From positions 1,544 to 65,543 of the forward strand of contig JABLXL010000005.1 in NCBI GenBank assembly GCA_013178005.1: a stretch of 64,000 nucleotides of DNA, read 5' to 3'. Under the pieces are notes generated by a model. The model worked only from the letters and a program-made list of their open reading frames with translations, searched no databases and was not told where the DNA came from. The position numbers were made by a program, and so were the translations under genes. Of the stretch, positions 17,258 through 61,327 are shown one piece after another. This DNA is from Actinomycetota bacterium (GTDB taxonomy: Bacteria > Actinomycetota > Geothermincolia > Geothermincolales > RBG-13-55-18). How positions within the stretch are numbered: position 1 is the first letter of the stretch; every line of letters starts with the position of its first letter.

Positions 17258-17281
17258 TGCGAGGTCTTGAAAGGAGCGGCC

Positions 17282-18229: not shown

Positions 18230-18420
18230 TAATAAATATTTACATCGTGGAAGGCTTTCCGGGTGAAAAATCTATTCTTTCTCGCATATCCGCGCAAGCG
18301 CGCCCCACGGCAGTGCGGTCATTCTGGCGAGGGCTTCCCGTATCAAGGTGGATGGCCGTGATGACGAAACCTCTATTGACGATGAAACGGTAAAGGTGCG
18401 GAGGTCGGTGGCGATAATCC

Positions 18421-25077: not shown

Positions 25078-25405
25078 GCTCTTCCTCCTCTTTCGCTTTC
25101 CGGCGGTAACCGAACCAAAACGACGGTTTTCTATAATATACCCGCGAGGAGAGGAATATATCGTGATATATATACTTTGACATATGGCTCGACGCGCAGC
25201 CCGCGATGCGAGCGACCGCGTGGCCTTCCCGCCGGCATGGTCGGCGGGAGGACCAGCGACACGAGGCTTTGGCGAGCGCATGGCGGCACCGGCCTGGCGC
25301 GACTATGGGAGCTTTGGCGCCGGGCGGAGGCCAGCTTCCGAAACCGGGGCCGACAACCGGGAGCCGGGACGGTTTGCGACACGAAGTAAGGGAGACGTTG
25401 AAGCG

Positions 25406-26422: not shown

Positions 26423-26662
26423 GCAGGGCGATGGGGAGTATGTCGCGGAGCGGGAGGATAAGATGGGACTGGTCGAGGACGTAAGGGACCGCTACGTAGG
26501 CAGTATCTCAGCCGCCAATTTGAATCACACGGCTTAATCAAGGGTGACTCTAGAGGACGTGGGTATTGGGGAGAAGAGAAGTGGAAGAGGGCAAGTCTCG
26601 GTCTTTCCTTGAGATGATATGAGCAGGGCGATGGGGAGTATGTCGCGGAGCGGGAGGATAAG

Positions 26663-40042: not shown

Positions 40043-40360
40043 CCCGGGACGGATTTCCGAGCTCCCGGCCATGGCGGGGAGTTGACCCCTTCGGCTTCCT
40101 CCCTCGCCCACCCCGGTCAGGTCATAGGGCAGAAACTGACAGCATGGAAGGAAAGCCATTACATCCTGCTTGGAACTGATTTCCAGCCCACTGGCTGCGG
40201 GTTTGATCGACCCTTCGGCCGTATCCGTTATCCGCCCGGGCCGGCGGGCAAGAGCTGAAAACATGGGAAGGGCGGCCCTTGTTTCCTGACTGGAACAGAT
40301 TCCCAACTCCCGGCTCCGGGCTTAATCGATCCCTCGGCCGTATCCGTCATCCGCCTGGGC
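40043..40360. repeat. right-hand set of tandem ~110-125-bp structured sub-repeats immediately downstream of nadE
   Basis: Units share ...ATCGA-CC-TCGGCCGTATCCGT-ATCCGCC-GGGCCGGGC-GGCGGGC. One unit carries the AAGAGCTGAAAACATGGGAAGGGCGGCCCTTGTTTC hairpin tail. Confidence 0.75.
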
Positions 40361-42369: not shown

Positions 42370-43698
42370 TTAAAGGACGGGCAGGTAGTTGCCCAGCTCC
42401 CACTCCGTGACCTGGGCGCGGTAGCGCTCCCACTCGATCTTCTTGTTCTCGATCAGCGAATCGAACACCGCGTCGCCCAGGGTCCTGCGCAAGAGCTCGC
42501 TCTTCTCCGCCAGCTGGATGGCCTCCCAGAGGTCCTCGGGAAGCTGCCCGATGCCCAGCTCCTCGCGTTCGGCGGCGCTCATCTCGTAGACGTTGCGCTC
42601 CACGGAATCGGCGAGCTCGTATTCCTTCTCGATGCCCTCCAGCCCCGCCGCCAGCATGCAGGCGAAGGCGAGGTAGGGGTTACAGGCGGGATCCGGGGAG
42701 CGGAACTCGATGCGCGTGGCCTTCTCCTTGCCCGGCTTGTACTCCGGAACGCGGATGAGGTCGGAGCGGTTGCGCACCGCCCAGGTCAGGTACACCGGCG
42801 CCTCGTAGCCGGGGACCAGGCGCTTGTAGGAGTTCACCCACTGGTTGCACACCAGGGTTATCTCCGGGGCGTGGCGCAGCAGCCCGGCGATGAAGCGCTT
42901 GGCGGTGACGGAGAGGTGGTGCTTGTCGTCGGGGTCGTAGAAGGCGTTGCGGTCGCCCTTGAAGAGGGACATGTGGGTGTGCATGCCGCTGCCGTTCTCG
43001 CCGAAGAGGGGCTTGGGCATGAAGGTGGCGTAAACCCCGTTGAGGAGGGCGATCTCCTTCACCACCAGGCGGAAGGTCATGGCGTTGTCGGCCATGGTAA
43101 GGGCGTCGGCGTAGCGCATGTCGATCTCGTGCTGGCTGGGGCCCACCTCGTGATGGCTGTACTCCACGCCGATGCCCAGCTCCTCGAGGGCGATGACGGT
43201 GTCGCGGCGCAGGTCGCTCGCGACATCGAGCGGCGTGAGGTCGAAGTAGCCGCCACGGTCAAGTATCTCCGTGGCCTCCGGGCTCTTGAAGTAGAAGTAT
43301 TCCAGCTCCGGCCCCACGTAGAAGGTGTAGCCCATCTCCGCCGCCCGGGCCAGGTTGCGCTTGAGGATGTAGCGGGGGTCCTTCTCGTAGGGCTCGCCAC
43401 CCGGCTTGAGCACGTCGCAGAACATCCTGCCCACGGCGTTGTGCTCGCGCGGCCGCCAGGGCAGGATGGCGAAGGTGCTGGGGTCGGGCATGGCGATCAT
43501 GTCGCTCTCGTCGATGCGCGCGTAGCCCTCGATGGAGGACCCGTCGAAGCCCATCCCGTCCTCCAAGGCCTCCTCCAGTTCCCCGATGGTGATGGCGAAG
43601 CTCTTGAGGAACCCGAGGATGTCGGTGAACCACAGCCGGATGAAGCGAACGTCGTTCTCGCGCGCCGTCTTGATCACGTACTCCTTGTCCTTGCTCAT
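42370..43698 (-). CDS. glnA: glutamine synthetase type I
   Basis: GS catalytic motifs (GSSIEG, KPLFGENGSGMHTH, NPY) across 442 aa. Confidence 0.9.
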   Translation of the reverse strand: MSKDKEYVIKTARENDVRFIRLWFTDILGFLKSFAITIGELEEALEDGMGFDGSSIEGYARIDESDMIAMPDPSTFAILPWRPREHNAVGRMFCDVLKPGGEPYEKDPRYILKRNLARAAEMGYTFYVGPELEYFYFKSPEATEILDRGGYFDLTPLDVASDLRRDTVIALEELGIGVEYSHHEVGPSQHEIDMRYADALTMADNAMTFRLVVKEIALLNGVYATFMPKPLFGENGSGMHTHMSLFKGDRNAFYDPDDKHHLSVTAKRFIAGLLRHAPEITLVCNQWVNSYKRLVPGYEAPVYLTWAVRNRSDLIRVPEYKPGKEKATRIEFRSPDPACNPYLAFACMLAAGLEGIEKEYELADSVERNVYEMSAAEREELGIGQLPEDLWEAIQLAEKSELLRRTLGDAVFDSLIENKKIEWERYRAQVTEWELGNYLPVL

Positions 43699-43809
43699 CT
43701 TTTGCTCCTTTCTCCCGCAAACCCGTTCACGGGTTCCGTTTCCCTGACTCCTGGATAAGATTCTCCCCTACCCGTGTTTCCATCCCTTTTCCGCACTGTT
43801 AAATCCTTG

Positions 43810-44148
43810 TTAAATGGCGTTGAAGCCGGACTCGCCGGTGCGGATGCGCACGGCGTTCTCCACCTCGTAGACGAAGATCTTGCCGTCGCCGATGTTGCCG
43901 GTGCGCGCCGCCCGGGTCACCGCCGCCAGCACCTTGGGTAGGTCCTCGTCCAGCACCACCGCCTCCAGCTTGAGCTTGGGCAGGAACTCCACGCGGTACT
44001 CCGCCCCCCTCCACATGTGGGTCACGCCCTTCTGCTTGCCGTGCCCCTTGACCTCGGTGATGGTCACGCCGGGGTAGCCCAGGGCGCGCAGCTCGTTCAT
44101 CACCGGCTCCAGGCGCTCCGGCCTGATGATGGCCTCGATCTTTTTCAT
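43810..44148 (-). CDS. glnK: nitrogen regulatory protein P-II (GlnK/GlnB)
   Basis: 112-aa PII signature (MKKIEAIIRPERL...T-loop RGAEYRV...). Immediately downstream of amtB, as expected for GlnK. Confidence 0.9.
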   Translation of the reverse strand: MKKIEAIIRPERLEPVMNELRALGYPGVTITEVKGHGKQKGVTHMWRGAEYRVEFLPKLKLEAVVLDEDLPKVLAAVTRAARTGNIGDGKIFVYEVENAVRIRTGESGFNAI

Positions 44149-44154
44149 GCTCCA

Positions 44155-45711
44155 TCACCCCCTCGCCGCGGCGATGTCCCCGCCGGCGCTCGCCACCGGC
44201 TCCGGCACCGGGAGGCTGATGCGGCTATCGTCGGTGTACGCGCTGACGCCCATCTCGTGCGCGTCCAGGCCGTCCACCTCCTCCTGGGGCGACACCCTGA
44301 TACCCTGCCACCGGTCCTGCAGTCGGAAGAAGAGGTAGGAGAGGCCGAACACGAAGGCCACGCAGGCAATCGCGCCGATGGCCTGCGCCGCCAGCTGCCC
44401 GGCGTCCCCGAAGAAAAGCCCCCGCACGGCTCCTTCGACGCCGTTGAGGCCGGCGCCATAGGTCCCGTCGGCGAACAGGCCCAGGGAGAGGACGCCCCAC
44501 AGGCCGTTCATGCCATGTACCGCGACGGCTCCCACCGGGTCGTCGATGCCCCGCCTTTCCAGGGCGAAGACCCCCACGCAGACCAGCACGCCGGCCACCG
44601 CCCCGATGATCAGCGACGCCCAGGAGGGCACGAAGGCGCAGGGGGCGGTCACTGCCACCAGGCCCGCCAGCATGCCGTTGGCGGTCATGGACGGGTCGGG
44701 CTTGCCGCATTTCCTCCACATGAAGAACATGGCGGCCAGGCATCCCGCGCACGCGGCCAGGAGCGTGTTCACCGCCACCACCGCCAGCCGCAGGTCGTTG
44801 CCGGAAAGCGTGCTGCCGGCATTGAACCCGAACCAGCCGAAGACGAGGATTATCACCCCGATTATGGCCATGGGCACGTTGTGGCCGGGGATGGCCCGCG
44901 GCTTGCCATCTCGGTCGAAGCGGCCGATGCGCGGCCCGATGACTATGGCGCCGGCCAGGGCGCAGATGCCGCCCACGGCGTGCACCACCGACGAGCCCGC
45001 GAAATCCACGAAGCCGTGGCCGAGGCCCAGGTTGGAGCCGAGCTGGGAAAGCCAGCCGCCGCCCCATACCCAGTGCCCGAACACGGGATAGAGGACCATG
45101 GACATGAAGAAACCGTAAACGACGAACGCCTTGAACTTCCACCTCTCGGCCATGGCCCCGGTGACGATGGTTGCGGCGGTGTCCATGAAGACCACCTGGA
45201 AGAGGAAGAAGAGGAACACCCCCACGTCGTACACGCCGCTCCCCGAGAGGGCGAACCCCTTGAGGCCCAGGATGGACCAGCCGCGGGCCACCTCCAGCTT
45301 GGCGTTGAGGATCTCCGCACCGCCCAGGGTGGCGAGTGCGCCCACCCCGCCGAACATCAGGGCGTAGCCCACCAGGAAATACCCCAGGGTGCCGATGGCG
45401 AAGATGGTGAAGTTGGTCATCATCACGTGCACGGCGTTGCGCTCCTGGGTGAACCCCGTCTCCACCATGGCGAAGCCGGCCTGCATGAAGAAGACGAGGA
45501 TGGCCCCCAGGAAGACCCAGATGAAATTAAGGGCTATCTTGCCGTGGCCGACTTCCTCGGAAAGCTCCCCCGCCAGGTCCTGCGAACCGCCCGTCTGCTC
45601 TCCCGTGGCGTCGGCCCTGGCCTTCCCCCCTCCGCCCGCCAGCGCGAGGAGAAGGAAACACAGCAGCACCCCTACGACCAGCGGTCCCCAACGGCGTAGA
45701 GCGATGACCAT
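44155..45711 (-). CDS. amtB: ammonium transporter Amt, with an N-terminal signal or extension
   Basis: Amt/MEP family signatures (DFAGG, twin-His region) and 11 TM helices. Start placed at the ATG with an AAAGGAGG RBS. Confidence 0.85.
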   Translation of the reverse strand: MVIALRRWGPLVVGVLLCFLLLALAGGGGKARADATGEQTGGSQDLAGELSEEVGHGKIALNFIWVFLGAILVFFMQAGFAMVETGFTQERNAVHVMMTNFTIFAIGTLGYFLVGYALMFGGVGALATLGGAEILNAKLEVARGWSILGLKGFALSGSGVYDVGVFLFFLFQVVFMDTAATIVTGAMAERWKFKAFVVYGFFMSMVLYPVFGHWVWGGGWLSQLGSNLGLGHGFVDFAGSSVVHAVGGICALAGAIVIGPRIGRFDRDGKPRAIPGHNVPMAIIGVIILVFGWFGFNAGSTLSGNDLRLAVVAVNTLLAACAGCLAAMFFMWRKCGKPDPSMTANGMLAGLVAVTAPCAFVPSWASLIIGAVAGVLVCVGVFALERRGIDDPVGAVAVHGMNGLWGVLSLGLFADGTYGAGLNGVEGAVRGLFFGDAGQLAAQAIGAIACVAFVFGLSYLFFRLQDRWQGIRVSPQEEVDGLDAHEMGVSAYTDDSRISLPVPEPVASAGGDIAAARG

Positions 45712-45904
45712 GACCGGACCTCCTTTCTCGCTCGGGTCGTCTCCTGCCAACCAAGTCTAAGGGCCGCTTTTTTCGGGGGTTTTTCACGTGCGTTAAGGTT
45801 TCGTGATCTTCTCGTTTCGAAAAAGTTAAACGCGGCGCCATCTGCTCACGAGCAACAGGCGGCCGGGGGTTTTTCCCCGCGGAGAGGCGGGCGCCAGTGT
45901 GATG

Positions 45905-46012
45905 AACCCGTTACGGGGTAGGCTTCAACGCGCAAAGACCCGTCGTCCCGTTACCGCGCCCTGGACATCGCACGAATCCGTTAACGGGGCCGGCGCCAAC
46001 GCGCAAAACGCC
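45905..46012. promoter_or_regulatory. three CCGTTA(A)C boxes, two of them within ~30-bp direct repeats (CCGTTACGGGGTAGGCTTCAACGCGCAAAG / CCGTTAACGGGGCCGGCGCCAACGCGCAAAAC) upstream of amtB
   Basis: Repeats seen directly, 200-300 bp upstream of the amtB start. Candidate nitrogen-regulator binding sites. Confidence 0.4.
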
Positions 46013-46069
46013 TGGGGGTTTTATACCATGAGGAGGGATTGTCGCATGGGACGGGCGCAGCCTGGACTT

Positions 46070-46729
46070 TCAATCCGGGGACACATGCTCGAAGATGTAG
46101 CCCACGCCGCGCACGGTGCGGATATAGGTATGGCCCTCCCGCTCGATCTTGGCGCGTATGCGGCGCACGTGCACATCTACGGTGCGGGAGCCTCCGAAGT
46201 AATCGTATCCCCAGACCTGCTCCAGGAGCATCTCGCGGGTGAACACCTTCCCCGGCCGGGAGGCGAGGAAATGCAGGAGCTCGAATTCCTTGAAGGTGAG
46301 CTCCACCCGCCTTCCCCCCACCCTCACCTCATAACGGTCCTCGTCTATCTCCAACTCCCCGGATCCCACGAGGGCTCGCACGGTTTCATCCCCACCCACC
46401 ATGCGGCGGATCCTTGCCCTTATCTCCTCCGCCGTCCCGTTATCGGCGACGAAGTCGTCTATATCCACGGCGCCGTCGAGGGTCCTTATCTGCTCGAAGC
46501 GCAGCACGGCGACCAGCCGCGCGCCTTCCGCCAGATCTCGCCGCAAGCCGCTCAAGAAGCCACGCCACTCCGCGCCCATCCCCGCGCAATCCGCCAGCAC
46601 CACATCACCGGGTGCCGTATTCGCGCTCCCATGCGGGGGAAAAGCCTCCACCGAGAAGCTTTCCTCCAGCACGCCCCGGAAGAATTCCCCACGTTCCCGG
46701 TCACAATGAAGAAAGACCTTGCCTGCCAT
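46070..46729 (-). CDS. OmpR/PhoB-family transcriptional regulator with an atypical receiver domain (GlnR-like)
   Basis: C-terminal winged-helix trans_reg_C (LTFKEFELLHFLASRPGKVFTREMLLEQVWGYDYF...RTVDVHVRRIRAKIE). The receiver lacks the canonical DD acidic pocket. Sits between the GOGAT genes and amtB. Confidence 0.6.
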   Translation of the reverse strand: MAGKVFLHCDRERGEFFRGVLEESFSVEAFPPHGSANTAPGDVVLADCAGMGAEWRGFLSGLRRDLAEGARLVAVLRFEQIRTLDGAVDIDDFVADNGTAEEIRARIRRMVGGDETVRALVGSGELEIDEDRYEVRVGGRRVELTFKEFELLHFLASRPGKVFTREMLLEQVWGYDYFGGSRTVDVHVRRIRAKIEREGHTYIRTVRGVGYIFEHVSPD

Positions 46730-46860: not shown

Positions 46861-47658
46861 TCAGTACGCGTATAGCCCACCGAAGGGGCGGTGCGACTTG
46901 GCGTACAGCTTGATGAAGCCGGAGCCGAGTATCTCGTCGGCTTTGCCCCCGAAGTAGTTCGTGTATTCCTCCACGTGGGGCCGGATCATCTCCAGGTCGG
47001 CTTCCGAGGCCCGCTCCACCGCGGCCTCCTTTCCGAGCTGATGCTCCTCCACCTCCCCGCGCAGGAAGATGAGACCCCCGTGCATGCCGGTCCCGATATG
47101 GCGCGCCGCCAGTTTTGGTTTTCCTTTCTTTCCCAGCCCCAACACCAGCACCAGCCCGCCGGCCATGTACTCCCCCAGGAAGTCCTGGGTCTCTCCTCCG
47201 ATGACCAGAACGGGGACGTGCTTGCGGTACTCCTTCATGTGAATGGCGGCGCGGTAACCCACGCCGTCGCGTATGAAGATCTTGCCTCCCCTCATGCCCA
47301 TGGCCACGATGTCTCCCGCGCGCCCGTGGACCACGATGGTGCCGCTGTTCATGGTGTTCCCCACCCCGTCCTGGGCATTGCGGTCCACGGTGATCCTGGG
47401 CCCGTCCATGAAGGCGCCGAGGTCATTCCCGGGCACGCCGTGAACGGTGATGCGCACGGGCCTGCGTATCCCCGACCCGATGTAGCGCTGGCCGAAGACG
47501 TTCTCGAGCTCTATCTCCTCCAGGCCCTCCGCGGCCGCTCCCTTGACCATGTTGTTGAGCTCGCGGTAATGGAGCGTTCCGGCGTTTATCCTCACCTTGC
47601 CGTTCTCTCGCGCGAACACGCCCGGCAACCCGGCATGGTGGTCCACCTCGATCTTCAT
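46861..47658 (-). CDS. glutamate synthase GXGXG-domain protein (stand-alone alpha-subunit C-terminal domain, archaeal-type GltB3-like)
   Basis: Repeated GxGxG beta-helix pattern (GIRRPVRITVHGVPGNDLGAF, GTIVVHGRAGD, GGKIFIRDGVG). Confidence 0.7.
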   Translation of the reverse strand: MKIEVDHHAGLPGVFARENGKVRINAGTLHYRELNNMVKGAAAEGLEEIELENVFGQRYIGSGIRRPVRITVHGVPGNDLGAFMDGPRITVDRNAQDGVGNTMNSGTIVVHGRAGDIVAMGMRGGKIFIRDGVGYRAAIHMKEYRKHVPVLVIGGETQDFLGEYMAGGLVLVLGLGKKGKPKLAARHIGTGMHGGLIFLRGEVEEHQLGKEAAVERASEADLEMIRPHVEEYTNYFGGKADEILGSGFIKLYAKSHRPFGGLYAY

Positions 47659-47913
47659 GTCCTCATCACCCTTTTTCGCTCACGCCACCTTTTTTTGTTT
47701 TCTTCTCCGCCTATCGAGAATTTCCCTTCATATCTCTATTCTATACCCCTGTCAAACCCGCGCCCCCGGAAAGCCGTGTTCCCCCATGGAGACCATGAGC
47801 GTCAGCTATACCCCCGCCGGATGTCCCGATGCGGAGTCTTTTCCTTATGGCACTAGCCTCCCTGCTGCTATCATCTCGGCGGGAACCCACCACCTGAGGC
47901 CGGGCTCCCTTCC

Positions 47914-49425
47914 TCAGGCGCCGGCGTGCTTGATGCCCAGGATGTCCAGTTCCTCCTGGGTGAGCCCCACTCCGCGCAGGCGCAGCCGGTTGCCGCGCAG
48001 GCTCTCTATGGCGTTGATGCCCATGCCTCCCAGCATCTCCATGATCTCGTGCGACCACCCGGTGAGCAGGTTCACCAGTCGCCGCGTCCCCACGTCGGGG
48101 TTTAAGCGCTTGGAGAGGTAGGGGTCCTGGGTGGCGATTCCCCAGTTGCACTTTCCGGTGTAGCATTTCTGGCAAACGTGGCATCCCATGGCCACCAGGG
48201 CGGCGGTGCCGATATAGACGGCGTCGGCGCCCAGGGCGATGGCCTTGATGACGTCGGAGGAATTGCGGATGCCTCCCGCCACCACCACGCTGGCGCGGTT
48301 GCGTATGCCCTCCTCCCGCAGCCGCGTGTCCACCGCCGCCAGCGCCAGCTCTATGGGGATGCCCACGTTGTCGCGGATCATGGTGGGCGCCGCCCCCGTG
48401 CCGCCACGGATGCCGTCCAGGGCCACGATGTCCGCTCCCGCGCGCACTATTCCCGAGGCGATGGCGGCGGAGTTGTGCACCGCGGCGATCTTCACCGACA
48501 CCGGCTTCTCCCAGTGCGTGGCCTCTTTCAGGGCGTAGATAAGCTGGGCCAGGTCCTCGATGGAGTAGATGTCATGGTGCGGCGCCGGCGAGATGGCGTC
48601 CGTCCCCTTGGGTATCATGCGCGTGCGGGATATCTCCGCGCTCACCTTCTCCCCGGGGAGGTGGCCCCCGATGCCAGGCTTCGCGCCCTGGCCTATCTTG
48701 ATCTCCAGGGCTGCGGCCACCTCCAGGTAATCGGCATGCACCCCGAAACGCCCCGAGGCCACCTGGCATATGGTGTGGTCGCCGTACTTGTAGAGGTTGC
48801 GGTGCAGGCCGCCCTCGCCGGTGTTGTAGTAGGTGCCCATCTCCGTGGCCGCCCGGGCCAGGGACTCGCAGGCGTTGTAGCTTATGGCGCCGTAGGAGAT
48901 GGCGGAGAACATGATGGGGGTCTCCAGTCGCAACTGCGGGGTGAGCCTGGTCTCCAGGGAGGGCTTGCCTCCCTTCCTCCCGACCTTCACCACGTCCGGC
49001 TTGGCCCCCAGGTAGGTGCGCAGCTCCATGGGCTCGCGCAGGGGGTCGATGGACGGGTTGGTGACCTGGCTGGCGTCCAGGACGATGCGGTCCCAGTAGA
49101 TGGGGTAACCCTTGTCGCATCCCATGCCCGTGAGCAGGACACCGCCCGTCTCCGCCTGCCTGTAGATGTTGCGCAACACCTCCCCCGTCCAGTTGGCGTT
49201 GGGCGGGATCTGGGTGGGGTTATGGCGCACCACCAGGGCGTTGGTGGGGCACAGGGTTACGCAGCGCAGACAGCCCACGCACTTGCTCTCGTCGGCGAAG
49301 ACCGCGTCCTCCTCCTCGTCGTACCAGTGCACGTCAAAGGCACACTGCCTCGCGCAGACCTCGCAGCGGATGCACCGGTAATCGTCCCTTTCCACCAGGT
49401 ATTGCGGCAAAATATAACTCTTCAA
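47914..49425 (-). CDS. glutamate synthase FMN/Fe-S domain protein with an N-terminal 2x[4Fe-4S] ferredoxin (archaeal-type large-subunit central domain)
   Basis: N-terminal CIRCEVCARQC / CVGCLRCVTLCP, then a GltS FMN-binding TIM barrel (ISAMSYGAIS-like: FSAISYGAIS; GEGG; the C-x-C Fe-S ligand region MGCHVCQKC). Confidence 0.8.
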   Translation of the reverse strand: MKSYILPQYLVERDDYRCIRCEVCARQCAFDVHWYDEEEDAVFADESKCVGCLRCVTLCPTNALVVRHNPTQIPPNANWTGEVLRNIYRQAETGGVLLTGMGCDKGYPIYWDRIVLDASQVTNPSIDPLREPMELRTYLGAKPDVVKVGRKGGKPSLETRLTPQLRLETPIMFSAISYGAISYNACESLARAATEMGTYYNTGEGGLHRNLYKYGDHTICQVASGRFGVHADYLEVAAALEIKIGQGAKPGIGGHLPGEKVSAEISRTRMIPKGTDAISPAPHHDIYSIEDLAQLIYALKEATHWEKPVSVKIAAVHNSAAIASGIVRAGADIVALDGIRGGTGAAPTMIRDNVGIPIELALAAVDTRLREEGIRNRASVVVAGGIRNSSDVIKAIALGADAVYIGTAALVAMGCHVCQKCYTGKCNWGIATQDPYLSKRLNPDVGTRRLVNLLTGWSHEIMEMLGGMGINAIESLRGNRLRLRGVGLTQEELDILGIKHAGA

Positions 49426-49447
49426 GGCATTCCTCCTCCGCCGGCCC

Positions 49448-50599
49448 TCAGGCCGGCTCCGCCCCGCTGATGCTCAATACCTTCCCCCCCGTCTCCTCTT
49501 CCCTGGCGGCGGGCTTGATCAGCTCCGCCACCACCGGAACTCCGCCGTGCGGAATCCAGGTATCCTTGAGGGTGTCGTCCACCAGGTGCATGGGAGCCTC
49601 CTCGGAGGAGATGTACATGAAGTCCCCGTTGCGGCCCGCCACCAACGGCCTCAGCCGGATGCGGTCGGTGAGCCCGATCATCTGCTCGCGGTTGGAGATG
49701 ATGATGCTGAAGGGCCCGTTGAGGAGCAGGGAGCCGTATGACTGCCGAAGGGCCACGTGCGCCTCCCTTTCACGCGCCGGCATGCGGTCTATCTCCGACC
49801 ACAGGGGCGCCGCGAGCACCCGGGACATGTCCTCTATGGACAGCCCGTGCCGCCGCACCAGGAGGTCGACCGCGTAGGCTATCACCTCCGTGTCCGTGAA
49901 CAGGGTGCACTTGTACCCGTACATCTCCAGGTGACGCATGTTGATGCCGTAGGAGGATATCTCCCCGTTGTGCACCACCGACCAGTCGAGGATGTTGAAG
50001 GGATGCGCCCCTCCCCACCAGGCCTGGGTGTTGGTAGGGAACCTGCCGTGGGCCACCCATATGTATCCCTCGTACTCGTCGAGGCGGAAGAAACGCCCCA
50101 CGTCCTCCGGGAAACCCACTCCCTTGAAAACGCCCATGTCCTTGCCGCTGGAGAAGACGAAGGCCCCGTCTATGAACACGTTGATGTGCATCACCGCGCG
50201 CACCACGAAGTCGTCCACGTCCTCGAGGTCGCAGGCGATGCTCTCGCGGGGCTGCAGGAAATAGCGCCACAGCAGCGGGGGGTCGGAGACCCCCTCGCAG
50301 CTCCGGGTGGGTATGACCTCCGCCCCCTCCAGGGAGAAGGAATCCTTGAGGTAGCCCTCCGTTTCCTCCTTGGCGGCCTGGTCGTCGTACATGAGCTGGA
50401 AACAGTACAGCTCGGCATACTGGGGGTAGATGCCGTAGGCGGCGAAACCGCCCCCCAGGCCGTTGCTGCGCTCCTTCATGTTGGCGATGGCGGTGATCAT
50501 GGGATCGCCGTTGAACTTCTCGCCGCGCAGGTTCATCATCCCGAATATGGAGCAGCCGGAGAAATCCTTGTCGTCCCTTACGCGCGCGCCCCTGAGCAC
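49448..50599 (-). CDS. class-II glutamine amidotransferase domain protein (glutamate synthase amidotransferase domain, archaeal split type)
   Basis: Ntn GATase-II fold with nucleophile-Cys context (GCSIFGMM). The Cys lies about 15 residues after the predicted GTG start, which implies a propeptide or a misplaced start. Confidence 0.7.
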   Translation of the reverse strand: MLRGARVRDDKDFSGCSIFGMMNLRGEKFNGDPMITAIANMKERSNGLGGGFAAYGIYPQYAELYCFQLMYDDQAAKEETEGYLKDSFSLEGAEVIPTRSCEGVSDPPLLWRYFLQPRESIACDLEDVDDFVVRAVMHINVFIDGAFVFSSGKDMGVFKGVGFPEDVGRFFRLDEYEGYIWVAHGRFPTNTQAWWGGAHPFNILDWSVVHNGEISSYGINMRHLEMYGYKCTLFTDTEVIAYAVDLLVRRHGLSIEDMSRVLAAPLWSEIDRMPAREREAHVALRQSYGSLLLNGPFSIIISNREQMIGLTDRIRLRPLVAGRNGDFMYISSEEAPMHLVDDTLKDTWIPHGGVPVVAELIKPAAREEETGGKVLSISGAEPA

Positions 50600-50602
50600 C
50601 TC

Positions 50603-51916
50603 TCACACCCCCTCGTCCCTCGCGGCTCCGGCCTTCATGATCCCGGCCGCCGTCTCTTTTATACGCTCCTGCCTGACCGAGCGCGGCAGGTGTATGTGGC
50701 CGAAGGCCTCCTCCAGGAGGAAGTTCTTCACCCTGCGCACGTTGGCCCGTTCCTGGATGAGGCTGGTAAGTATGCCCGCGCGCTCCACGCGCCCCGCCAC
50801 GAGCATGCCCACGATGACGTCGCCTTGCAGCACCACCTTACGGTAGTCGCCTCCGTCCACCCGGCGCGCTATCACCTCGTAGCCGTCCTCGGGAGGGTTC
50901 ACGACGCCCGCGGAGAGCACCGGGAGGCCGAAGAACTCCACCGCGTTCATGGAATTGCACCCCGGGTAGGGGACCTCCCTTCCCGCCATGTTCAGGCCGG
51001 CGTACTTCCCCTGCAGGGCGGCCACGGGCCAGAGCGCGTTGATGGCAGGTTTTCCCAGCACGATATCCATGGCGCTCACCGCATCTCCCGCCGCGAAAAC
51101 ATCCTCCAGGGAGGTGCGCTGGTGCTCGTCCACCTCGATGCCATGGGGACAGTCAAGGCCCGCTCCCTCGGCCAGTTCCGCGCGCGGCCTCACCCCCACG
51201 GCCATGACCAGGAGGTCGAAGTCTATCTCGCCGCCGTCCTCGAGGGTCGCCTTGCCCTTTCCTCCCCCCGTGGACTCCAGGGCGGCCACGCCCTGCCCGG
51301 TGACGATGTCGATGCCCGCCTCGCGGCACCTCTCCCAGACCATGCGCGAGGCCTGTTCGTCCAGCGCCTGGGGGAGTACGCGCTCCATCTTCTCCACCAC
51401 CGTCACCTCGGCGCCGCGCGCCTCCGCCGCCTCCGCCGCCTTCATGCCTATAAGCCCCGCTCCCACCACCAGGACGCGCGCGGGCTTGGCGGTCCTTGCC
51501 AGCATGCGCTTGGCGTCGTCCCAGTTCACGAAGGTTATGTAGTCCACGTCCTCCAGCCCGGGAACGGGGGGGATGAAGGGCTTGAAGCCCGTCGCCAGCA
51601 GCAGCTTGCGCCACTTCACCTTCTCGTTATCCGCCGTGGTGAGGGTCTTTTTCCCGGCGTCAACCGCCTCGACCCTGGCGCCCTTGCGGAACTCCACCCG
51701 CATGGAGCGGTAGTAGCCGGAGGGGCGGTAGTACATCCCCTTGCTCTCTATCTGGCCAGCCACCAGGTAGGAGATGAGGGGGCGGGAATAGCAACGGTAT
51801 TTCTCCTCCGCGAAGAGGACGATGGACCCCTCCCGATCCACGCTGCGAATGGCGTCACAGGCGTTTATCGCCGCCGCCGAGTTGCCCACTATCGCGTAAT
51901 CGTACCTGGCCGCCAT
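50603..51916 (-). CDS. FAD/NAD(P)-dependent pyridine-nucleotide-disulfide oxidoreductase family flavoprotein (probable electron-donating partner of the split GOGAT)
   Basis: Two Rossmann dinucleotide motifs (YAIVGNSAAA, VLVVGAGLIGMKAAEAA) and a C-terminal dimerisation domain. Confidence 0.7.
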   Translation of the reverse strand: MAARYDYAIVGNSAAAINACDAIRSVDREGSIVLFAEEKYRCYSRPLISYLVAGQIESKGMYYRPSGYYRSMRVEFRKGARVEAVDAGKKTLTTADNEKVKWRKLLLATGFKPFIPPVPGLEDVDYITFVNWDDAKRMLARTAKPARVLVVGAGLIGMKAAEAAEARGAEVTVVEKMERVLPQALDEQASRMVWERCREAGIDIVTGQGVAALESTGGGKGKATLEDGGEIDFDLLVMAVGVRPRAELAEGAGLDCPHGIEVDEHQRTSLEDVFAAGDAVSAMDIVLGKPAINALWPVAALQGKYAGLNMAGREVPYPGCNSMNAVEFFGLPVLSAGVVNPPEDGYEVIARRVDGGDYRKVVLQGDVIVGMLVAGRVERAGILTSLIQERANVRRVKNFLLEEAFGHIHLPRSVRQERIKETAAGIMKAGAARDEGV

Positions 51917-51919
51917 GTC

Positions 51920-52357
51920 CTATTCCTCCACCATCAACAGGGCCTCGTTGGGGCAGTTGGCGACGCAGGCCGGCACCTCGAGGTCCGGGCACAGGTCGCA
52001 TTTCCCCACCGCCTTCCGCTCAGCCTCGTCGCGGCGCACGGCCCCGAATGGGCACACCAGGATGCAGGTCCAGCATCCCACGCAGCGTTCCGGGTCGTTG
52101 ACCACCGCTCCCGTTTCGGGGTCCTTGGACATCGCGCCCGAGAGGCACGCGGTCACGCAAGGGGCCTCCTCGCAATGCCGGCACTGCAACGCGAAGGATA
52201 CATGCCCTTCCTCCTCCACCTCGACCCGCTTTACCGGCCTCCTCTCGCTCTTGAAGGCCTTGATGATGTTCTTGCTCCTGGAGTGCTGCACGATGCAGTG
52301 TATCTCGCACAGGCGACACCCGATGCAGTACTCCTCGCGAGGCACGATTCTGATCAA
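51920..52357 (-). CDS. 4Fe-4S dicluster ferredoxin-like protein (HycB-like, multiple clusters)
   Basis: CIGCRLCEIHC, CRHCEEAPCVTAC, CVGCWTCILVCP and CDLCPD...CVANCP motifs. Confidence 0.7.
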   Translation of the reverse strand: MIRIVPREEYCIGCRLCEIHCIVQHSRSKNIIKAFKSERRPVKRVEVEEEGHVSFALQCRHCEEAPCVTACLSGAMSKDPETGAVVNDPERCVGCWTCILVCPFGAVRRDEAERKAVGKCDLCPDLEVPACVANCPNEALLMVEE

Positions 52358-52634
52358 AACGGTACCACCTTCTCTTTCCTCGGGCCGGGGTCAGGCGCCG
52401 GCTCCTCCCGCCCTCATCACCGCCTGCGTCACCACGCTGCGGGCATGGAAACACAAACATAATAAATGCAAACGGGGTCTAATACCATAATCCTGCGCGC
52501 CCTCGGGAAACGGCTTGGCGGTTATAGAGGCCCTCGCTGGATCCCATGGCGGCTCGCCGTCCATCGCCGACCGGTCCCGGAGCCTCGGCTTACCTAAACC
52601 GTGTCGGGCACGGCGGGACACTCCCGTAACAAAC

Positions 52635-52663
52635 AATAGGCAATAGGTTACCTATTGCCTATT
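52635..52663. promoter_or_regulatory. perfect 13-3-13 inverted repeat AATAGGCAATAGG-TTA-CCTATTGCCTATT in the divergent GOGAT-operon / NrpR-like promoter region
   Basis: Seen directly. Lies about 20 bp upstream of a TTGTCA...TAATAT promoter-like element and about 70 bp upstream of the regulator's TTG start (RBS AAAGGAG). Confidence 0.6.
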
Positions 52664-52733
52664 TAATACGTTTTATTATATATTGTCAAGCAGAATGGCG
52701 GCTAATATTTACCGTTAAAGGAGTGAAAAGCCC

Positions 52734-53723
52734 TTGCTGGAACGGAAAACGCTGGCCATCCTGGAGGTGCTAAGGGAAGCGCGGGAGCCCCTGGGTGCGA
52801 GGGCCATTTCACAGGAACTCTCCCGCCGGGGAATCGAGCTCAACGAGAGGACGGTGCGCTACCACCTGCTGCACCTGGACGAGCGCGGTCTCACCCGGCT
52901 GGAGGGCAGGCGGGGCCGCTCGCTCACCGATGCCGGCTTGCGGGAGATCGAGGGCGCCATGGCCGTGGACAGGGTGGGGTTCGTGAACTCGCGCATCGAC
53001 GACCTCGCCTGCCGCTCCGATTTCAACCTCGCTGAGCGAAGGGGCCGCCTGGCGATCAACATCACCTTCCTCCCACTGGAGCAGGAGCGGCGCGCGGTCG
53101 AGGCGATGCGGGCCGCCTTCGAGGCGGGCTTCTGCCTCTCGGACCTGGCGCTGCGCGCCGGGCCGGGAGAGCGGGCGGGAGACATGGAGGTGCCCGCGGG
53201 GATGGTCGGCTGGGGCACCGTCTGCAGCGTAACTCTGAACGCGGTGTTCCTGCGCCACGGAATACCGGTGGAATCGAGTTTCGGCGGCCTTCTCGAGATC
53301 CGCGAGGGCAGGCCCGTGCGCTTCACCGAGATCATAAGCTACGCGGGCTCCAGCCTGGACCCCATCGAGATCTTCATCAAGGGCAAGATGACCAGCGTGC
53401 ACGCCGCGGCCACCGAGGGCGACGGAAGGATCTGCGCCTCCTTCCGGCTCATTCCCGCCTCCGCCTTCGATAACGCGGCAGAGGTCGCGGAAAGGATGAA
53501 GGAGGCGCGCCTCGGGGGGATGATCCTCCTGGGAAGGCCGGGACACCCACTTATGGAGGTGCCCGCCGGCAGGGACAGGGTGGGCCTGGTGGTCGCGGGA
53601 GGCCTCAACCCGCCCGCGGCAGCGGAGGAGATGGGGGTGGACACCTTCTCGCGCGCCATGGCCACCCTGGTGGACTACTCCTCGCTCTCCCCTTTCTCCT
53701 CCCTGGCTAGGCGCATCCGTTGA
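52734..53723 (+). CDS. NrpR-like nitrogen regulator (N-terminal winged HTH plus DUF128/NRD-type domain)
   Basis: N-terminal wHTH (LAILEVLREAREPLGARAISQELSRRGIELNERTVRYHLLHLDERGL) followed by a domain resembling the NRD (DUF128) of methanogen NrpR. The nitrogen-cluster context supports this. TTG start. Confidence 0.5.
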   Translation: MLERKTLAILEVLREAREPLGARAISQELSRRGIELNERTVRYHLLHLDERGLTRLEGRRGRSLTDAGLREIEGAMAVDRVGFVNSRIDDLACRSDFNLAERRGRLAINITFLPLEQERRAVEAMRAAFEAGFCLSDLALRAGPGERAGDMEVPAGMVGWGTVCSVTLNAVFLRHGIPVESSFGGLLEIREGRPVRFTEIISYAGSSLDPIEIFIKGKMTSVHAAATEGDGRICASFRLIPASAFDNAAEVAERMKEARLGGMILLGRPGHPLMEVPAGRDRVGLVVAGGLNPPAAAEEMGVDTFSRAMATLVDYSSLSPFSSLARRIR

Positions 53724-57230: not shown

Positions 57231-57608
57231 TCATTCGCGTGAATGCGGTCGGCGGTAGAGTTCGGCCCCTTCCGCGAGGGCGGAGGCCACGAACCCGTTT
57301 CCCTCCTCCAGCATCGACTCCAGCTCCTCGCGCGTATAGGGGAAGACGTCCACGCCGACGGGAAAGCGCGAGGGCATGAAAACGGGTATGCGGTCGAGGA
57401 AGGGCAGCTCGGACCGGTCAAGCACTATGAGGAGGTCGACGTCGCTGGAGGGCACCTCGTCCCCCCTGGCGAAGGAGCCGAATAGCACCACCCTTTCCAG
57501 CTCGGGATGCCCGGCCGACAGCTCTCCCACATACTCGGCGAGGGCCTCCCTCACCGCCTCGCGGTCAAGATACCTTATCCTCACAAAAGGAGATGACTGC
57601 CTCTCCAT
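57231..57608 (-). CDS. MNT-type nucleotidyltransferase (antitoxin of a HEPN/MNT pair)
   Basis: GSFARGDEVPSSDVDLLIV Pol-beta nucleotidyltransferase motif. Confidence 0.75.
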   Translation of the reverse strand: MERQSSPFVRIRYLDREAVREALAEYVGELSAGHPELERVVLFGSFARGDEVPSSDVDLLIVLDRSELPFLDRIPVFMPSRFPVGVDVFPYTREELESMLEEGNGFVASALAEGAELYRRPHSRE

Positions 57609-57948
57609 TGTCGATCGCCCTTTCCGCCTCCGTCCTCGTGTAGTACTCGAAGGGAGCCCCCTGGGGATGCGAGTTGGGATATCGCGGCGGGATATAGTGC
57701 TTGTCCAGCTCCTTGCCTTTTTCCAGCAATTCCTCCCCCACCCCGATCTCCGCGGGTAACCCCGATAGCAACGCGCTCACCGAATGTCCCCAAGCCTCGG
57801 CTCCCAGGCTCTGGAAAAGGGCCTTCACCGCCTTTTCCGCGCCCTGCTGCGCTGCGAAACACGCCCATTCGTAGTCCCCGTCGCGCAAGGCGTGTCGCGC
57901 GTGCTCGAGGTCTCTCCTCGCCTGCTTCAACCAGTCCCCGTGCCTGGA
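57565..57948 (-). CDS. HEPN-domain protein (toxin of a HEPN/MNT pair)
   Basis: HEPN fold helices with an Rx4-6H-like region (ARHALRDGDYEWACFAAQQGAEKAVKALF). Overlaps the MNT gene. Confidence 0.65.
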   Translation of the reverse strand, partial: SRHGDWLKQARRDLEHARHALRDGDYEWACFAAQQGAEKAVKALFQSLGAEAWGHSVSALLSGLPAEIGVGEELLEKGKELDKHYIPPRYPNSHPQGAPFEYYTRTEAERAIDNGEAVISFCEDKVS

Positions 57949-58045
57949 CGGCATGGCGTTCACCCCCACCTGATTATACATCGTCGCCCATGTGGTTCTC
58001 TCCGGCGAGCGCGATGCGGGCGTCTGCCGCCACCGAATACCGCCG

Positions 58046-59068
58046 CTAAATATTCTTTCCGAGCTCGGCAAGGATTTCCTCGAGCGGGGGCGCGCCGAAA
58101 AAGCGCTTCCCGGTTATGCCGTCGCAACAGCTCTTGTAGAGGAGGGAGACCAGTTCCTTCATCCTCGCGGGCAGGGGTGGCGGAGACTGGCGGACGAGCC
58201 CTTTCCACTCGATGCGGTTGGCCCTCTTGGCCTCCTCGACCTCCCTGCTCCATTCCGTGCCGCGGTAGAAGATCCTGGCGATCTCCTTGCTCACCGGCAT
58301 CCCGCGGTACTCGAAGCGGCATTCGTCGGGGGTGCCCAGTACGTCCACCAGCATGAGCCGGCGGTTCTCGTCGAAGGCGAACTCCACCTTGCCGTCCTGG
58401 TTCTCCAGCCCCAGGGGCTCAACGACGCTAGTAATGAGGGCGTTGATCCGCATGGTGGCTTCCTTCAATTCCAAGAGTTCCCGTGGGGACAGCCCGGCTA
58501 TCTCCCGCGCCTCCTCCCATCCCAGGTACCTGTCGGTGGACTCCAGCTTGGTCGATACGTCCAGGATGGGCCGCTCCAGCCTCTCGCCGGGTTTGGGAGG
58601 CCCTTCCAGCCCCAGGTCCTCTATGCTCACGCTGCCCTCCTCCAAGCGCTTGAACACGCTGGAGCCCTCCGGCAGCGAGTTGCGGTAGATCACCTCCAGG
58701 GGTATGAGGAAGTTCCCCTTCTCGGCGCTGTAGGCGGAGTAATCGTAGGCGTCCCCGGCGGGGCGCGGTTCCACCACGCGCACCAGCTTCACCTCCATGG
58801 TATCCGCCGGCTCCTCCAGCTCCGAAAGGCGCCGCGGCACCCCGCCCTTTCCCACCACGCCCAGATAATGCGTGGGCATCCCCATGTCCTCTAACCTCTC
58901 GAAGAAATAAGCTCCCATGAGGCAGAGCGCTGCCCCCTTTCCCTCGATGAGGTCCGGCATCTCCCCCCAGTCGAAAACGGAGTAACGGTCCGAGAAGTGG
59001 AACCTGCCCCTGCCCGGCTTGCCTTCGGAGGGCGCCTCGAGCACCTCCAGGTCTTTAACGCTTCCCAT
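58046..59068 (-). CDS. purC: phosphoribosylaminoimidazole-succinocarboxamide (SAICAR) synthase
   Basis: PurC signatures (GKVRD-like SVKDLEV...GRGRFHFSDRYSVFDW). Long-form enzyme. Confidence 0.85.
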   Translation of the reverse strand: MGSVKDLEVLEAPSEGKPGRGRFHFSDRYSVFDWGEMPDLIEGKGAALCLMGAYFFERLEDMGMPTHYLGVVGKGGVPRRLSELEEPADTMEVKLVRVVEPRPAGDAYDYSAYSAEKGNFLIPLEVIYRNSLPEGSSVFKRLEEGSVSIEDLGLEGPPKPGERLERPILDVSTKLESTDRYLGWEEAREIAGLSPRELLELKEATMRINALITSVVEPLGLENQDGKVEFAFDENRRLMLVDVLGTPDECRFEYRGMPVSKEIARIFYRGTEWSREVEEAKRANRIEWKGLVRQSPPPLPARMKELVSLLYKSCCDGITGKRFFGAPPLEEILAELGKNI

Positions 59069-59243: not shown

Positions 59244-59801
59244 TCAACCTCCGGACATCTTCCTGTAAGCCCTCGAGAGCTCGAGGTTCATGTCCGCCAC
59301 CCTTCTCGCGAACTCCCCGGCTTGATCATCCAGGTCCGCGAGGCGCAGGGCCTTCTCCGGCGTGTCCACGACGCTTCCGGATGCGACCAGTCTTCCCGCG
59401 TCCACCTCCACCCCTTCAACCACAGCCACTTGCCTGATAACCGTCCCATCCCCGATGGAGGCGTTGAAAATCACTGAGCCGAACCCCACGAAACAGCCGT
59501 CCCCTATCCTGCAAGGGCCATGTATTATGCACCCATGGGCAAGGGATGCTCTTCGGCCGATAACCACGGATGAACCCTTCAGCGCGTGGATTATCACGCC
59601 GTCCTGTACGTTGCTCCCCTCCCCTATCTCGATCGAGCTTTCCGGCTCGTCCGCCCTCAACACCGCGCATGGCCCTATGAAGACCTCGTCGCCGACGATC
59701 ACCTTGCCGACGAGCAGGGCTGTCGGGTCGATGTAGGCGCTTCCCGATATCATGGGCGATTCCCCCTGGGGATTGGGCCTTCCCTTCACGTTTCCTTTCA
59801 T
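59244..59801 (-). CDS. gamma-class carbonic-anhydrase-like / left-handed beta-helix hexapeptide-repeat protein
   Basis: Hexapeptide repeats with the His ligand context of gamma-CA/YrdA/PaaY (VIIHALKG...LAHGCIIHGP). Its ATG overlaps the PEPC stop (ATGA). Confidence 0.7.
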   Translation of the reverse strand: MKGNVKGRPNPQGESPMISGSAYIDPTALLVGKVIVGDEVFIGPCAVLRADEPESSIEIGEGSNVQDGVIIHALKGSSVVIGRRASLAHGCIIHGPCRIGDGCFVGFGSVIFNASIGDGTVIRQVAVVEGVEVDAGRLVASGSVVDTPEKALRLADLDDQAGEFARRVADMNLELSRAYRKMSGG

Positions 59802-61327
59802 CCCATGAAACCTCTCAACACCGCGGTCTCCTCCACCATCTCTGAAACGTTCCTGCCCTCCTCGAGGAGCAGGAGGATGTTCGAGGTCATGTTCCTGTGG
59901 ATAAGGTGCTTGTTGTGAGAGGGCTCCGTCTGGATGCCCAGGACCCCCTCCAGCCACTTCAGGTCCTCCTCCACTCCGGCCAGGGCCGGGAACCTGCCCT
60001 TCAGCCGCGCGATGTTCTCCCGGTTCACGAAGGCGCACGCTTCCTCCGCGTCCCGCTTGAGGTTCACGTACAAGCGGCTCAGCGACTCGCTCAACCCCAC
60101 GTCGAAGGCCTCCCTCAATGCCCTCCCGGTTCCTATCACCTCGGGGGGTATGCCCAGGGAGTAAAGCGAGGCGGTGAAAGTGATTGCGCGGGGCAAGCTC
60201 ACCCCCTTGGTAATCTCCCTGGAATACCCGAACAAGCCGGTATGCAGCCTCCTCTCCCTCCGCCTCGGTATGTGTCTCGACATCTCGATGATCAAGGGCG
60301 CGATCTCGATGATAGTGGCGCGATAGTGCTTTTTAAAGACGGCGATGAGCTTTTCCGCGTCCCTCGCCTCCTCGCCGCTCATCTCCGGAGCCCTCGAGCC
60401 CTTGGCAAGGACCCGGTTCAAAGCCTTGACCGCCTTGGTCACGTCCTCGGCGGGATGGTCATAGCGGAAGGACGACTGCACGGTGGCGGTGCGCACGCCT
60501 GGGTATTCCTCCAGGAACCGTTTCACGGTGAGCGGGGACAGGTTGCCGCGGAAAGGCACGCTGCCGCAGCCGATGATGGGATAGACCTCCAACCCGCTCT
60601 CCTCCGCCGCCCGGTAAGCCCTGGAAAGGCCCACCTTGGCCCCCAGCACCGCGGGCACCAGGCCGTAGTTGAGAGCGGGGTCGGAGCGGGCGATGAACGG
60701 CCTCACGTATTCCAGTTCCTTTATCCTCGCCAGGCCTTTTCTCCGGTAAAGGGATACGTATCTACGGATGAGGTCGCCCAGCCCCATCATGTCCGGTATG
60801 TCCTCCACCAGGGGGATTATCTCGATTATGGGAGGGTTGCCGCTGCCGATCCTCCTCTCGGGATCCTTCCTGATCAACCGCGCGAAATCGGAGTAGACGC
60901 CCTGCAGGTACACGAGCTGATCCGCCGAGGTGGTCATGGGGAGGATTATCTCGAACACCGGCGGGCAGTGCAGGCCGATGTCCTTCGCGATGTCGTGGGC
61001 GGCGAGGATGTTGGCGAAGGCGCGCAGGATGCGGTAGCTGCCCTTCTCCACCCATATATTGGGAAGGCGGTAGGTGAGGAAGATATCCCTGCCCAGCGCC
61101 TTCTTCCTGAAGTAGGCGAGATCCTCCTCGAACACGCGCTCGATGACCGCCTCGTCTACGTATTTGCCCTCCCAGTCCCACATGAACTCGTGGCATCCGA
61201 GCGCCTCGAAGGCGACCAGGCACTCCTTCACCTCGTCCCGGCTGTCTATGAAGCTCTTTCCGAGCCAGAAGGCCGCGCAAGCATTATCCGGGTGTTGCGT
61301 GGCCATGGTAGTGGGTATGCTTCTCAT
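59798..61327 (-). CDS. ppcA: archaeal-type phosphoenolpyruvate carboxylase (PepcA, PEPcase type 2)
   Basis: About 509 aa, with the N-terminal ATQHPDN motif characteristic of the short archaeal-type PEPC family. Confidence 0.65.
   Translation of the reverse strand: MRSIPTTMATQHPDNACAAFWLGKSFIDSRDEVKECLVAFEALGCHEFMWDWEGKYVDEAVIERVFEEDLAYFRKKALGRDIFLTYRLPNIWVEKGSYRILRAFANILAAHDIAKDIGLHCPPVFEIILPMTTSADQLVYLQGVYSDFARLIRKDPERRIGSGNPPIIEIIPLVEDIPDMMGLGDLIRRYVSLYRRKGLARIKELEYVRPFIARSDPALNYGLVPAVLGAKVGLSRAYRAAEESGLEVYPIIGCGSVPFRGNLSPLTVKRFLEEYPGVRTATVQSSFRYDHPAEDVTKAVKALNRVLAKGSRAPEMSGEEARDAEKLIAVFKKHYRATIIEIAPLIIEMSRHIPRRRERRLHTGLFGYSREITKGVSLPRAITFTASLYSLGIPPEVIGTGRALREAFDVGLSESLSRLYVNLKRDAEEACAFVNRENIARLKGRFPALAGVEEDLKWLEGVLGIQTEPSHNKHLIHRNMTSNILLLLEEGRNVSEMVEETAVLRGFMG

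Follow-up and report, generated by a model that had tools for sequence, protein, structure and literature searches.

What an NrpR-type nitrogen repressor does in a bacterium, and through which DNA sites it acts, is the question raised by the locus described here; in the literature searched, no experimental work on NrpR beyond the methanogens was found. The stretch analysed, 64 kb of contig JABLXL010000005.1 from an Actinomycetota bacterium and referred to below, at its full length, as the window, carries an nrpR homologue that is divergent from an operon of five minus-strand genes (Fer4 to GXGXG) for a split glutamate synthase (GOGAT), the divergence from GOGAT having been described already in an earlier note made on the letters of this DNA. 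The 376-bp intergenic region contains a 29-bp perfect palindrome, O1, and a shorter site, O2 (Table 1). The reading that we favour, with moderate confidence, is that NrpR represses both GOGAT and its own gene through O1, and probably through O2, and that this repression is relieved by 2-oxoglutarate. Judging from its conservation, its geometry and its association with nitrogen genes across phyla, O1 is probably an NrpR operator.

The product of the gene can be assigned securely, by its domains, to the NrpR family. PF08461 (HTH_12) matches residues 8-72 (E 2.4e-18; 66.3 bits, with the cut-off at 21.4) and PF01995 (NRD1_2), the NrpR regulatory domain (NRD), matches residues 81-319 over model positions 1-237 of 238 (E 3.5e-75; 252.7 bits, with the cut-off at 25) in the Pfam search, while the sole solved relative, the NRD of Methanocaldococcus jannaschii MJ0159 (PDB 3NEK), aligns to residues 80-322 (E 1.4e-20). 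The profile search with DUF128, proposed in the earlier note as a check on its NrpR-like protein, is thus strongly positive. A single PF01995 stretch is found in the protein, which places it with NrpRI, that is, with proteins of about 330 residues having one helix-turn-helix and exactly one NRD. With it, 1948 homologues were recovered; homologues have lengths of 324-358 residues and an identical two-domain make-up, and the nearest ones, named "NrpR regulatory domain-containing protein", come from metagenome-assembled genomes (MAGs) of Actinomycetota and Candidatus (Ca.) Geothermincolia, and close homologues are annotated by JGI as "global nitrogen regulator NrpRI". No model was matched in a scan of NCBIfam. 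Since both the closest homologues and the closest loci are those of Actinomycetota MAGs of the class Ca. Geothermincolia, the host is a bacterium, with a nucleotide identity of 81.5% to Ca. Solincola daggyaiensis.

The palindrome can be read as AATAGGCAATAGG-TTA-CCTATTGCCTATT (13-3-13), as it was in the earlier note, which had located it correctly; the repeat search showed it to be really a perfect 14-1-14 inverted repeat. Each arm is a tandem AATAGG-N-AATAGG, and the internal period is 7 bp. No other copy is present in the window at up to two mismatches, and O1 is also the only match there to its position weight matrix, with a score of 47-54, the next unrelated match being below 8. The earlier note had set O1 apart from the methanogen operator GGAA-N6-TTCC. 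With respect to the letters of the half-sites this holds, exact GGAA/TTCC half-sites being absent from the window; with respect to the geometry it does not, since O1 lends itself to a reading as two overlapping GGNN-N6-NNCC units, and these units (GGCAATAGGT[T/A]ACC), as well as O2, retain the GG-N10-CC arrangement.

Conservation was followed in 21 distinct orthologous nrpR/Fer4 intergenic regions of Geothermincolia, which comprise metagenome loci anchored on the protein, genome loci anchored on the motif and loci anchored on glnA. O1 is found at the same position in all 21, with diverging flanks, and its four GG/CC dinucleotides are invariant; such maintenance at one place in distinct orthologous loci indicates that O1 is more than a chance palindrome, and it represents the conserved cis-regulatory behaviour that would be expected if, as the earlier note supposed, O1 were placed to control both transcription units. 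The nrpR-proximal arm is nearly fixed as CCTATTnCCTAT, a fixity that is partly by construction for the motif-anchored loci and that holds for the protein-anchored ones too. In the distal (left) arm, mismatches occur at pair 8/22 in 9 of the 21 sites, at 4/26 in 8 and at 7/23 in 5. Because these changes are uncompensated, selection acts on the sequence of O1 and not on pairing between its arms. The divergent nrpR/GOGAT synteny is itself kept in loci L004-L017, L065-L091 and L098-L100.

Two predicted promoters are interleaved with the palindrome. The sequence TGTCAA, 19-20 nt to the right of O1, is an exact TTGACA on the GOGAT-directed strand in 19 of 20 regions, and the orthologous versions of this promoter, P_L, have a spacer of 16-17 nt followed by TTAAAT, TTTAAT, TCTAAT, TGTAAT or TATTAT, a hexamer that shares its final three bases with the beginning of O1. 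In the locus of Ca. S. tengchongensis (L069) the promoter scan calls TTGACA-16-TATTAT (11/12) facing Fer4. In the window, transcription from P_L is predicted to start near 52654, inside O1, which would span from about -9 to +20. The nrpR-directed promoter P_R takes its predicted -35 element from the right arm of O1. Thirteen of 20 orthologues retain this promoter (TATATT in 11, TATGTT in 2), and it is absent where the arm reads TTACCT or TTTCCT. Use of TTGTCA as the -35 element of a rightward nrpR promoter was considered and set aside. It is poorly spaced from any -10-like hexamer, the AT-rich core of O2 being 15 nt away, and on the opposite strand it invariably reads as a perfect TTGACA.

O2, which had passed unremarked in the earlier note, is present in 21 of 21 orthologues with its GG and CC invariant in the alignment. 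It stands at a fixed distance of 10-11 nt beyond TGTCAA in the 20 orthologues that have that sequence. Its variants include GGAA-N6-TGCC, found in several orthologues, and the perfect GGCAATATATTGCC (GGCA-N6-TGCC) of locus L010. In most orthologues the nrpR ATG follows O2 by 2-4 nt, and their mRNAs are possibly leaderless. In the window (52710-52736), TTAAAGG replaces the TTATGGG of the orthologues and a TTG 20 nt downstream is used instead, which according to the open reading frame listing and the sequence has its own AGGAG (52719-52723) 10 nt to the 5' side.

The motif is not confined to this lineage. When the 17 invariant positions of O1, GGNNANNGGTNNCCTATTNCCTAT, were searched for in species-representative genomes (596 Gb), 37 matches were obtained, about 69 being expected by chance at uniform base composition, and at least 15 of them adjoin nrpR, glnA or GOGAT: ten are Geothermincolia nrpR/GOGAT regions and five more lie beside nitrogen genes in unrelated lineages. 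In a Deltaproteobacteria MAG (L066) the site immediately precedes nrpR, in a Chloroflexi MAG (L093) it covers the ATG of nrpR, and in a Dehalococcoidia MAG (UBA2777; L082) it precedes a Pyr_redox-GATase_2-Glu_synthase arrangement. The archaeon Ca. Wolframiiraptor allenii (L080) has the full site between glnA and GOGAT together with a lone 14-bp unit, GGAATATGGTTACC, which precedes the ATG of GOGAT by 25 nt, and in a Hadarchaeota MAG (L089) the site is 30 nt before glnA, fused to a TTTTTATA box. The suggestion that the operator might be lineage-specific has therefore to be abandoned, as the extended motif (GGnAAnnGGTnnCCTATTnCCTAT) occurs at nrpR, GOGAT or glnA in two lineages of Chloroflexota, in a Deltaproteobacteria MAG and in two archaea. 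These distant sites preserve sequence columns rather than pairing. In L082 a near-consensus sigma-70 promoter, TTGACG-17-TATTAT (10/12), reads into the site, and another such promoter (11/12) does so in L093, a layout that matches that of P_L and O1 in the window. The best available argument for NrpR as the protein that binds O1 is the presence of the site at nrpR in L066 and L093, which have no GOGAT neighbour.

Some further observations were made on the motif matches. In the archaeal locus L080 (4300-4560) the full site and the lone unit are each fused to a TTTTATA-like box, and the outer ATAGG of the archaeal motif may double as part of a TATA box. In two Methanosarcina-type MAGs (L096, 1334-1357; L067, 2147-2170) the extended motif is located about 200 nt upstream of homologous Peripla_BP_2 lipoprotein genes, which are not recognised nitrogen genes, and a DUF134 gene stands alongside in L067.

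Taken together, these features can be accommodated in a mechanism in which NrpR would bind a compact control region (52635-52713). O1, as two overlapping inverted 14-bp GGNN-N6-NNCC units, would be the main operator, and NrpR bound to it would cover P_L from about -9 to +20 and exclude RNA polymerase from the GOGAT promoter. Autorepression of nrpR is probable, because the -35 element of P_R is in the right arm of O1 and O2 lies between P_R and the start codon. Cooperation between O1 and O2 would be possible, with about 53 bp from unit B to O2, centre to centre. Under nitrogen sufficiency the system would be repressed, and under nitrogen limitation 2-oxoglutarate would release NrpR and turn GOGAT on; the sign of the regulation and the response to 2-oxoglutarate are proposed here by analogy with the methanogens. 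The binding of NrpR itself, its stoichiometry and the transcription starts are what we infer from the DNA.

Several facts weigh against this mechanism. P_L of the window is not called by the promoter scan, since its TTAAAT is without the critical A at position 2. A start inside O1 would give GOGAT a leader of about 297 nt, compared with about 100 nt in most orthologues, and this long leader contains an AT-rich island, a possible second, proximal promoter. The half-sites of O1 are not GGAA/TTCC. O1 is missing from the syntenic loci L016 and L017 (57% and 52% identity) and from 37 more distant nrpR loci (40-50%), and it is apparently absent from Ca. Solincola sediminis (L101). There is one strict match per Geothermincolia genome, and for this reason an NrpR regulon wider than GOGAT and nrpR is not demonstrated. 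In addition, no experimental or comparative study of bacterial NrpR, or of nitrogen regulation in Geothermincolia, was found in the literature searched.

Other palindromes recur upstream of the nrpR genes at 40-50% identity. They comprise the GC-rich GCGCGGCGGGT-N4-8-ACCCGCCGCGC, GGGCCATGATGGCCC and CGGCAAT(N0-2)ATTGCCG, in loci L026, L035, L040, L041, L046, L052 and L053, at 70-250 nt upstream, and in L018 and L032. The last of these palindromes has the half-site GGCAAT in common with O1.

The protein at O1 could instead be another factor, for example the GlnR-like regulator of the OmpR type, with NrpR acting at O2 alone or at other places. The same conserved cluster does contain the gene of a second nitrogen regulator, and 39 nrpR loci at 40-57% identity are without O1. 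However, the sites of OmpR-family proteins are direct repeats that recur about every 11 bp, and repeats of this kind are found upstream of glnA and amt, unrelated to O1, which is an inverted repeat with the GG-N10-CC of the known NrpR operator and does not consist of such direct repeats upstream of a -10 element. Moreover, the Chloroflexi and Deltaproteobacteria loci with an O1-type site directly at nrpR show no GlnR-like neighbour, and binding by a different factor seems to us unlikely. On the other hand, NrpR could be the protein at O1 and act there as an activator or a dual regulator, for instance by repressing nrpR and activating a proximal GOGAT promoter in the AT-rich island. In the window and in the closest relative, L090 (Ca. 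Solincola daggyaiensis), some 280 bp separate O1 from the start of Fer4, and the island, partly conserved between these two only and about 100 bp upstream of Fer4, could be such a promoter or another binding site; the -10 element of P_L in the window is, besides, imperfect. Most orthologues, however, have an intergenic region of only about 200 bp from which the island is absent. The succession of TTGACA, 17-nt spacer, -10 element and site is maintained and is met again in other phyla, where the site coincides with the predicted start or closely follows it, and every characterised NrpR is a repressor (PMC9765008, PMC2723118); an activating or dual role is accordingly given a low probability.

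A nucleic-acid hairpin, whether an intrinsic terminator, an attenuator or a leader stem-loop, is by far the least probable interpretation of the palindrome. The stem of 14 bp is perfect, and O1 is flagged as terminator-like on the minus strand, with a similar call in L069. Nevertheless, both flanking genes point away from O1, leaving nothing to terminate, the left arm changes without compensation while the right arm is fixed, and Rfam gave no match to O1, and on these three grounds a terminator or structured RNA was ruled out. As for a riboswitch or leader RNA elsewhere in the intergenic region, Rfam (gathering threshold; E<=5) gave only a chance match to DapZ (E 1.3), and this candidate was also discarded. 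Repression by NrpR thus remains the interpretation that we prefer, and it can be compared with known systems.

The closest parallel is NrpR of Methanococcus maripaludis with its operators at nif and glnA, for which the consensus is GGAAN6TTCC (PMC2723118). The two systems are alike in the protein family (winged helix plus NRD), in an inverted repeat with GG-N10-CC spacing, in the position of the operator at or just after the transcription start (a predicted start in our case), in the presence of two operators (probable ones in our case) per control region, as reported for nif, and in nitrogen-assimilation targets, 2-oxoglutarate being the expected inducer here (PMC2723118, PMC9765008). They differ in the half-sites, which are GGCA/TACC here instead of GGAA/TTCC, in the main site, a 29-bp composite of two overlapping units, and in the target, which is GOGAT and not nif, glnA or amtB. 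Moreover, M. maripaludis NrpR has two NRDs, whereas the window protein has one. The host in our case is a bacterium with sigma-70-type promoters, and therefore repression must act on bacterial RNA polymerase. The single-NRD architecture is that of NrpRI of Methanosarcina mazei and M. acetivorans, and NrpR1 carries the DNA-binding region (bioRxiv 10.1101/2020.06.15.153874). In Methanosarcina, NrpRI is accompanied by NrpRII, which is NRD-only; the window showed no such partner. In archaea, NrpRII makes contact with TBP and TFB, and bacteria are without both.

With regard to mechanism only, the locus resembles the Tn10 tetR/tetA type, in which divergent promoters overlap, in that regulator and target are divergent and their interleaved promoters, as predicted, share operators, and it resembles the Fur-box type, with its overlapping dimer sites, in having an operator of hexamer repeats in which overlapping dyads can be recognised; in neither case is there a relationship between the protein families. 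The likeness to actinobacterial GlnR, which is an orphan OmpR-family global nitrogen regulator controlling amtB, glnK and glnA in Actinobacteria, consists of the OmpR-type protein of the cluster and of the GlnR-like repeats (TTAAC/GAAAC, 11-bp period) before amt and glnA, whereas NrpR belongs to another protein family and its probable site is a palindrome instead of direct repeats.

Table 1. Location of the control sites, predicted promoters and genes of the nrpR/GOGAT region in the window.
Feature	Position	Strand	Sequence	Remarks
O1	52635..52663	.	AATAGGCAATAGGT-T-ACCTATTGCCTATT	29-bp perfect palindrome with four ATAGG pentamers; probable main NrpR operator
Unit A of O1	52639..52652	+	GGCAATAGGTTACC	GGNN-N6-NNCC geometry; read from sequence
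Unit B of O1	52646..52659	-	GGCAATAGGTAACC	Overlaps unit A by 7 bp; deduced from the symmetry of O1
O2	52700..52713	.	GGCTAATATTTACC	14-bp GGNN-N6-NNCC, 20 nt before nrpR start; probable auxiliary/autoregulatory operator
P_L, predicted -35	52684..52689	-	TTGACA	GOGAT-directed promoter
P_L, predicted -10	52661..52666	-	TTAAAT	17-nt spacer; last 3 nt are the first 3 nt of O1
P_R, predicted	52655..52684	+	TTGCCT-18-TATATT	nrpR-directed promoter; promoter scan 9/12; -35 in O1 right arm
AT-rich island	52440..52495	.	GGAAACACAAACATAATAAATGCAAACGGGGTCTAATACCATAAT	Within the GC-rich stretch of about 280 bp between O1 and Fer4 start
nrpR homologue	52734..53723	+		NrpRI type; 329 aa, TTG start; winged helix and one NRD
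Split GOGAT operon	46861..52357	-		Likely regulated target; Pfam; divergent from nrpR
Fer4	51920-52357	-		Pfam; GOGAT operon
Pyr_redox_2	50603-51916	-		Pfam; GOGAT operon
GATase_2	49448-50599	-		Pfam; GOGAT operon
Glu_synthase (FMN)	47914-49425	-		Pfam; GOGAT operon
GXGXG	46861-47658	-		Pfam; GOGAT operon
OmpR-family regulator	46070-46729	-		219 aa; Trans_reg_C 1.9e-29
amt	44155-45750	-		Same nitrogen cluster
PII	43810-44148	-		Same nitrogen cluster
glnA	42370-43698	-		Same nitrogen cluster
nadE	40347-42125	-		Same nitrogen cluster

O1-type sites adjoin GOGAT in the window and glnA, GOGAT or nrpR in other phyla. This location is that of a regulator of nitrogen assimilation, and it does not extend to glnA and amt of this cluster, upstream of which neither the search at up to two mismatches nor the position weight matrix found an NrpR site. 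Further copies at gln or amt genes, which the earlier note had suggested looking for, are thus not in the window: glnA and amt, 7-10 kb away, carry a GlnR-type repeat. Ahead of both genes there are conserved direct repeats that recur every 11 bp, TTAAC-n6-TTAAC-n6-GAAAA-n6-GAAAC, after which comes a -10 element, cATAAT or TAGACT (43699-43809 and 45751-46069, minus strand, and the equivalent regions of L098-L101), and the amt region of the window contains in addition three copies of GTAACGG and two of TTTGCGCGTTG. We take these repeats to resemble the GlnR boxes of Actinobacteria. An O2-like sequence, GGAGAATCTTATCC, upstream of glnA (about 43760) was rejected as a site, as it is not conserved in L098-L101 and the GlnR-type repeats and -10 element explain the region.

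The OmpR-type protein is, from its sequence features, a candidate for an atypical GlnR-like regulator. No receiver domain was detected in it with Pfam at E<=1e-5, and its NCBIfam matches are all far below the curated cut-offs and mostly begin after residue 77, with one weak match to QseB, also below its cut-off, that spans residues 38-213. Since glnA and amt are without an NrpR site and have GlnR-type direct repeats, the nitrogen cluster appears to be divided between two regulators, NrpR and a GlnR-type one; amt-PII and glnA would lie outside the NrpR operator, their direct repeats pointing to the neighbouring OmpR-family regulator.

This nitrogen supercluster (regulator, amt, PII, glnA and nadE) is syntenic in relatives. 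No exact-sequence match to the window PII protein is on record, and no nif genes are among the annotated open reading frames of the window. Elsewhere in the window, an archaeal-type phosphoenolpyruvate (PEP) carboxylase (PEPcase_2, 5.2e-141) and a RuBisCO large-subunit homologue are encoded at 59798-61327 and 62407-63756, both on the minus strand, and these two, together with split GOGAT and NrpR, make up a set of gene types best known from archaea in one actinobacterial window. Downstream of nrpR, a pair of NTP_transf_2 nucleotidyltransferase and HEPN genes (57231-57608 and 57565-58071, minus strand) is likely a toxin-antitoxin module; a similar pair replaces amt-PII in L098, between the regulator gene and glnA. 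An HGD-D (2-hydroxyacyl-CoA dehydratase-like) gene pair and a flavodiiron-type ODP/flavodoxin protein are found among 25184-27919 (plus), 23683-24867 (minus) and 14270-19188 (plus), and the same wider stretch includes a GAF-PAS histidine kinase with GGDEF and LytTR response regulators, in an arrangement that is syntenic in relatives.

A broader proposal can be put forward tentatively, as a possibility. The 29-bp composite (ATAGG-N-AATAGGT-N-ACCTATT-N-CCTAT) might be an ancient, cross-domain NrpR operator that travelled with split GOGAT, glnA and nrpR between archaea and several bacterial phyla, and of which the methanogen GGAA-N6-TTCC would be a reduced version. Through it, the NrpR of bacteria would block sigma-70 RNA polymerase and, in Geothermincolia, would do so alongside a GlnR-type activator in one supercluster, as a hybrid archaeal/actinobacterial circuit.

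Bacterial NrpR homologues number thousands in the sequence databases, where they are named by domain only. The locus described here provides a testable system, which combines the candidate operators O1 and O2 with the split GOGAT operon as likely target and with a predicted promoter layout, and in which it can be asked how an archaeal-type repressor acts on bacterial RNA polymerase. Moreover, the extended site adjoins glnA and GOGAT in archaea as well as in bacteria, and this suggests a broader definition of the operator than GGAA-N6-TTCC, which would improve the prediction of regulons in uncultured lineages. NrpR and GlnR-type control side by side would represent two regulatory inventions that divide the GS-GOGAT pathway between them. 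The known NrpR family is in this way extended to a new host and a probable new target, GOGAT, with a somewhat different operator architecture and in keeping with the current understanding of the family, which is not overturned.

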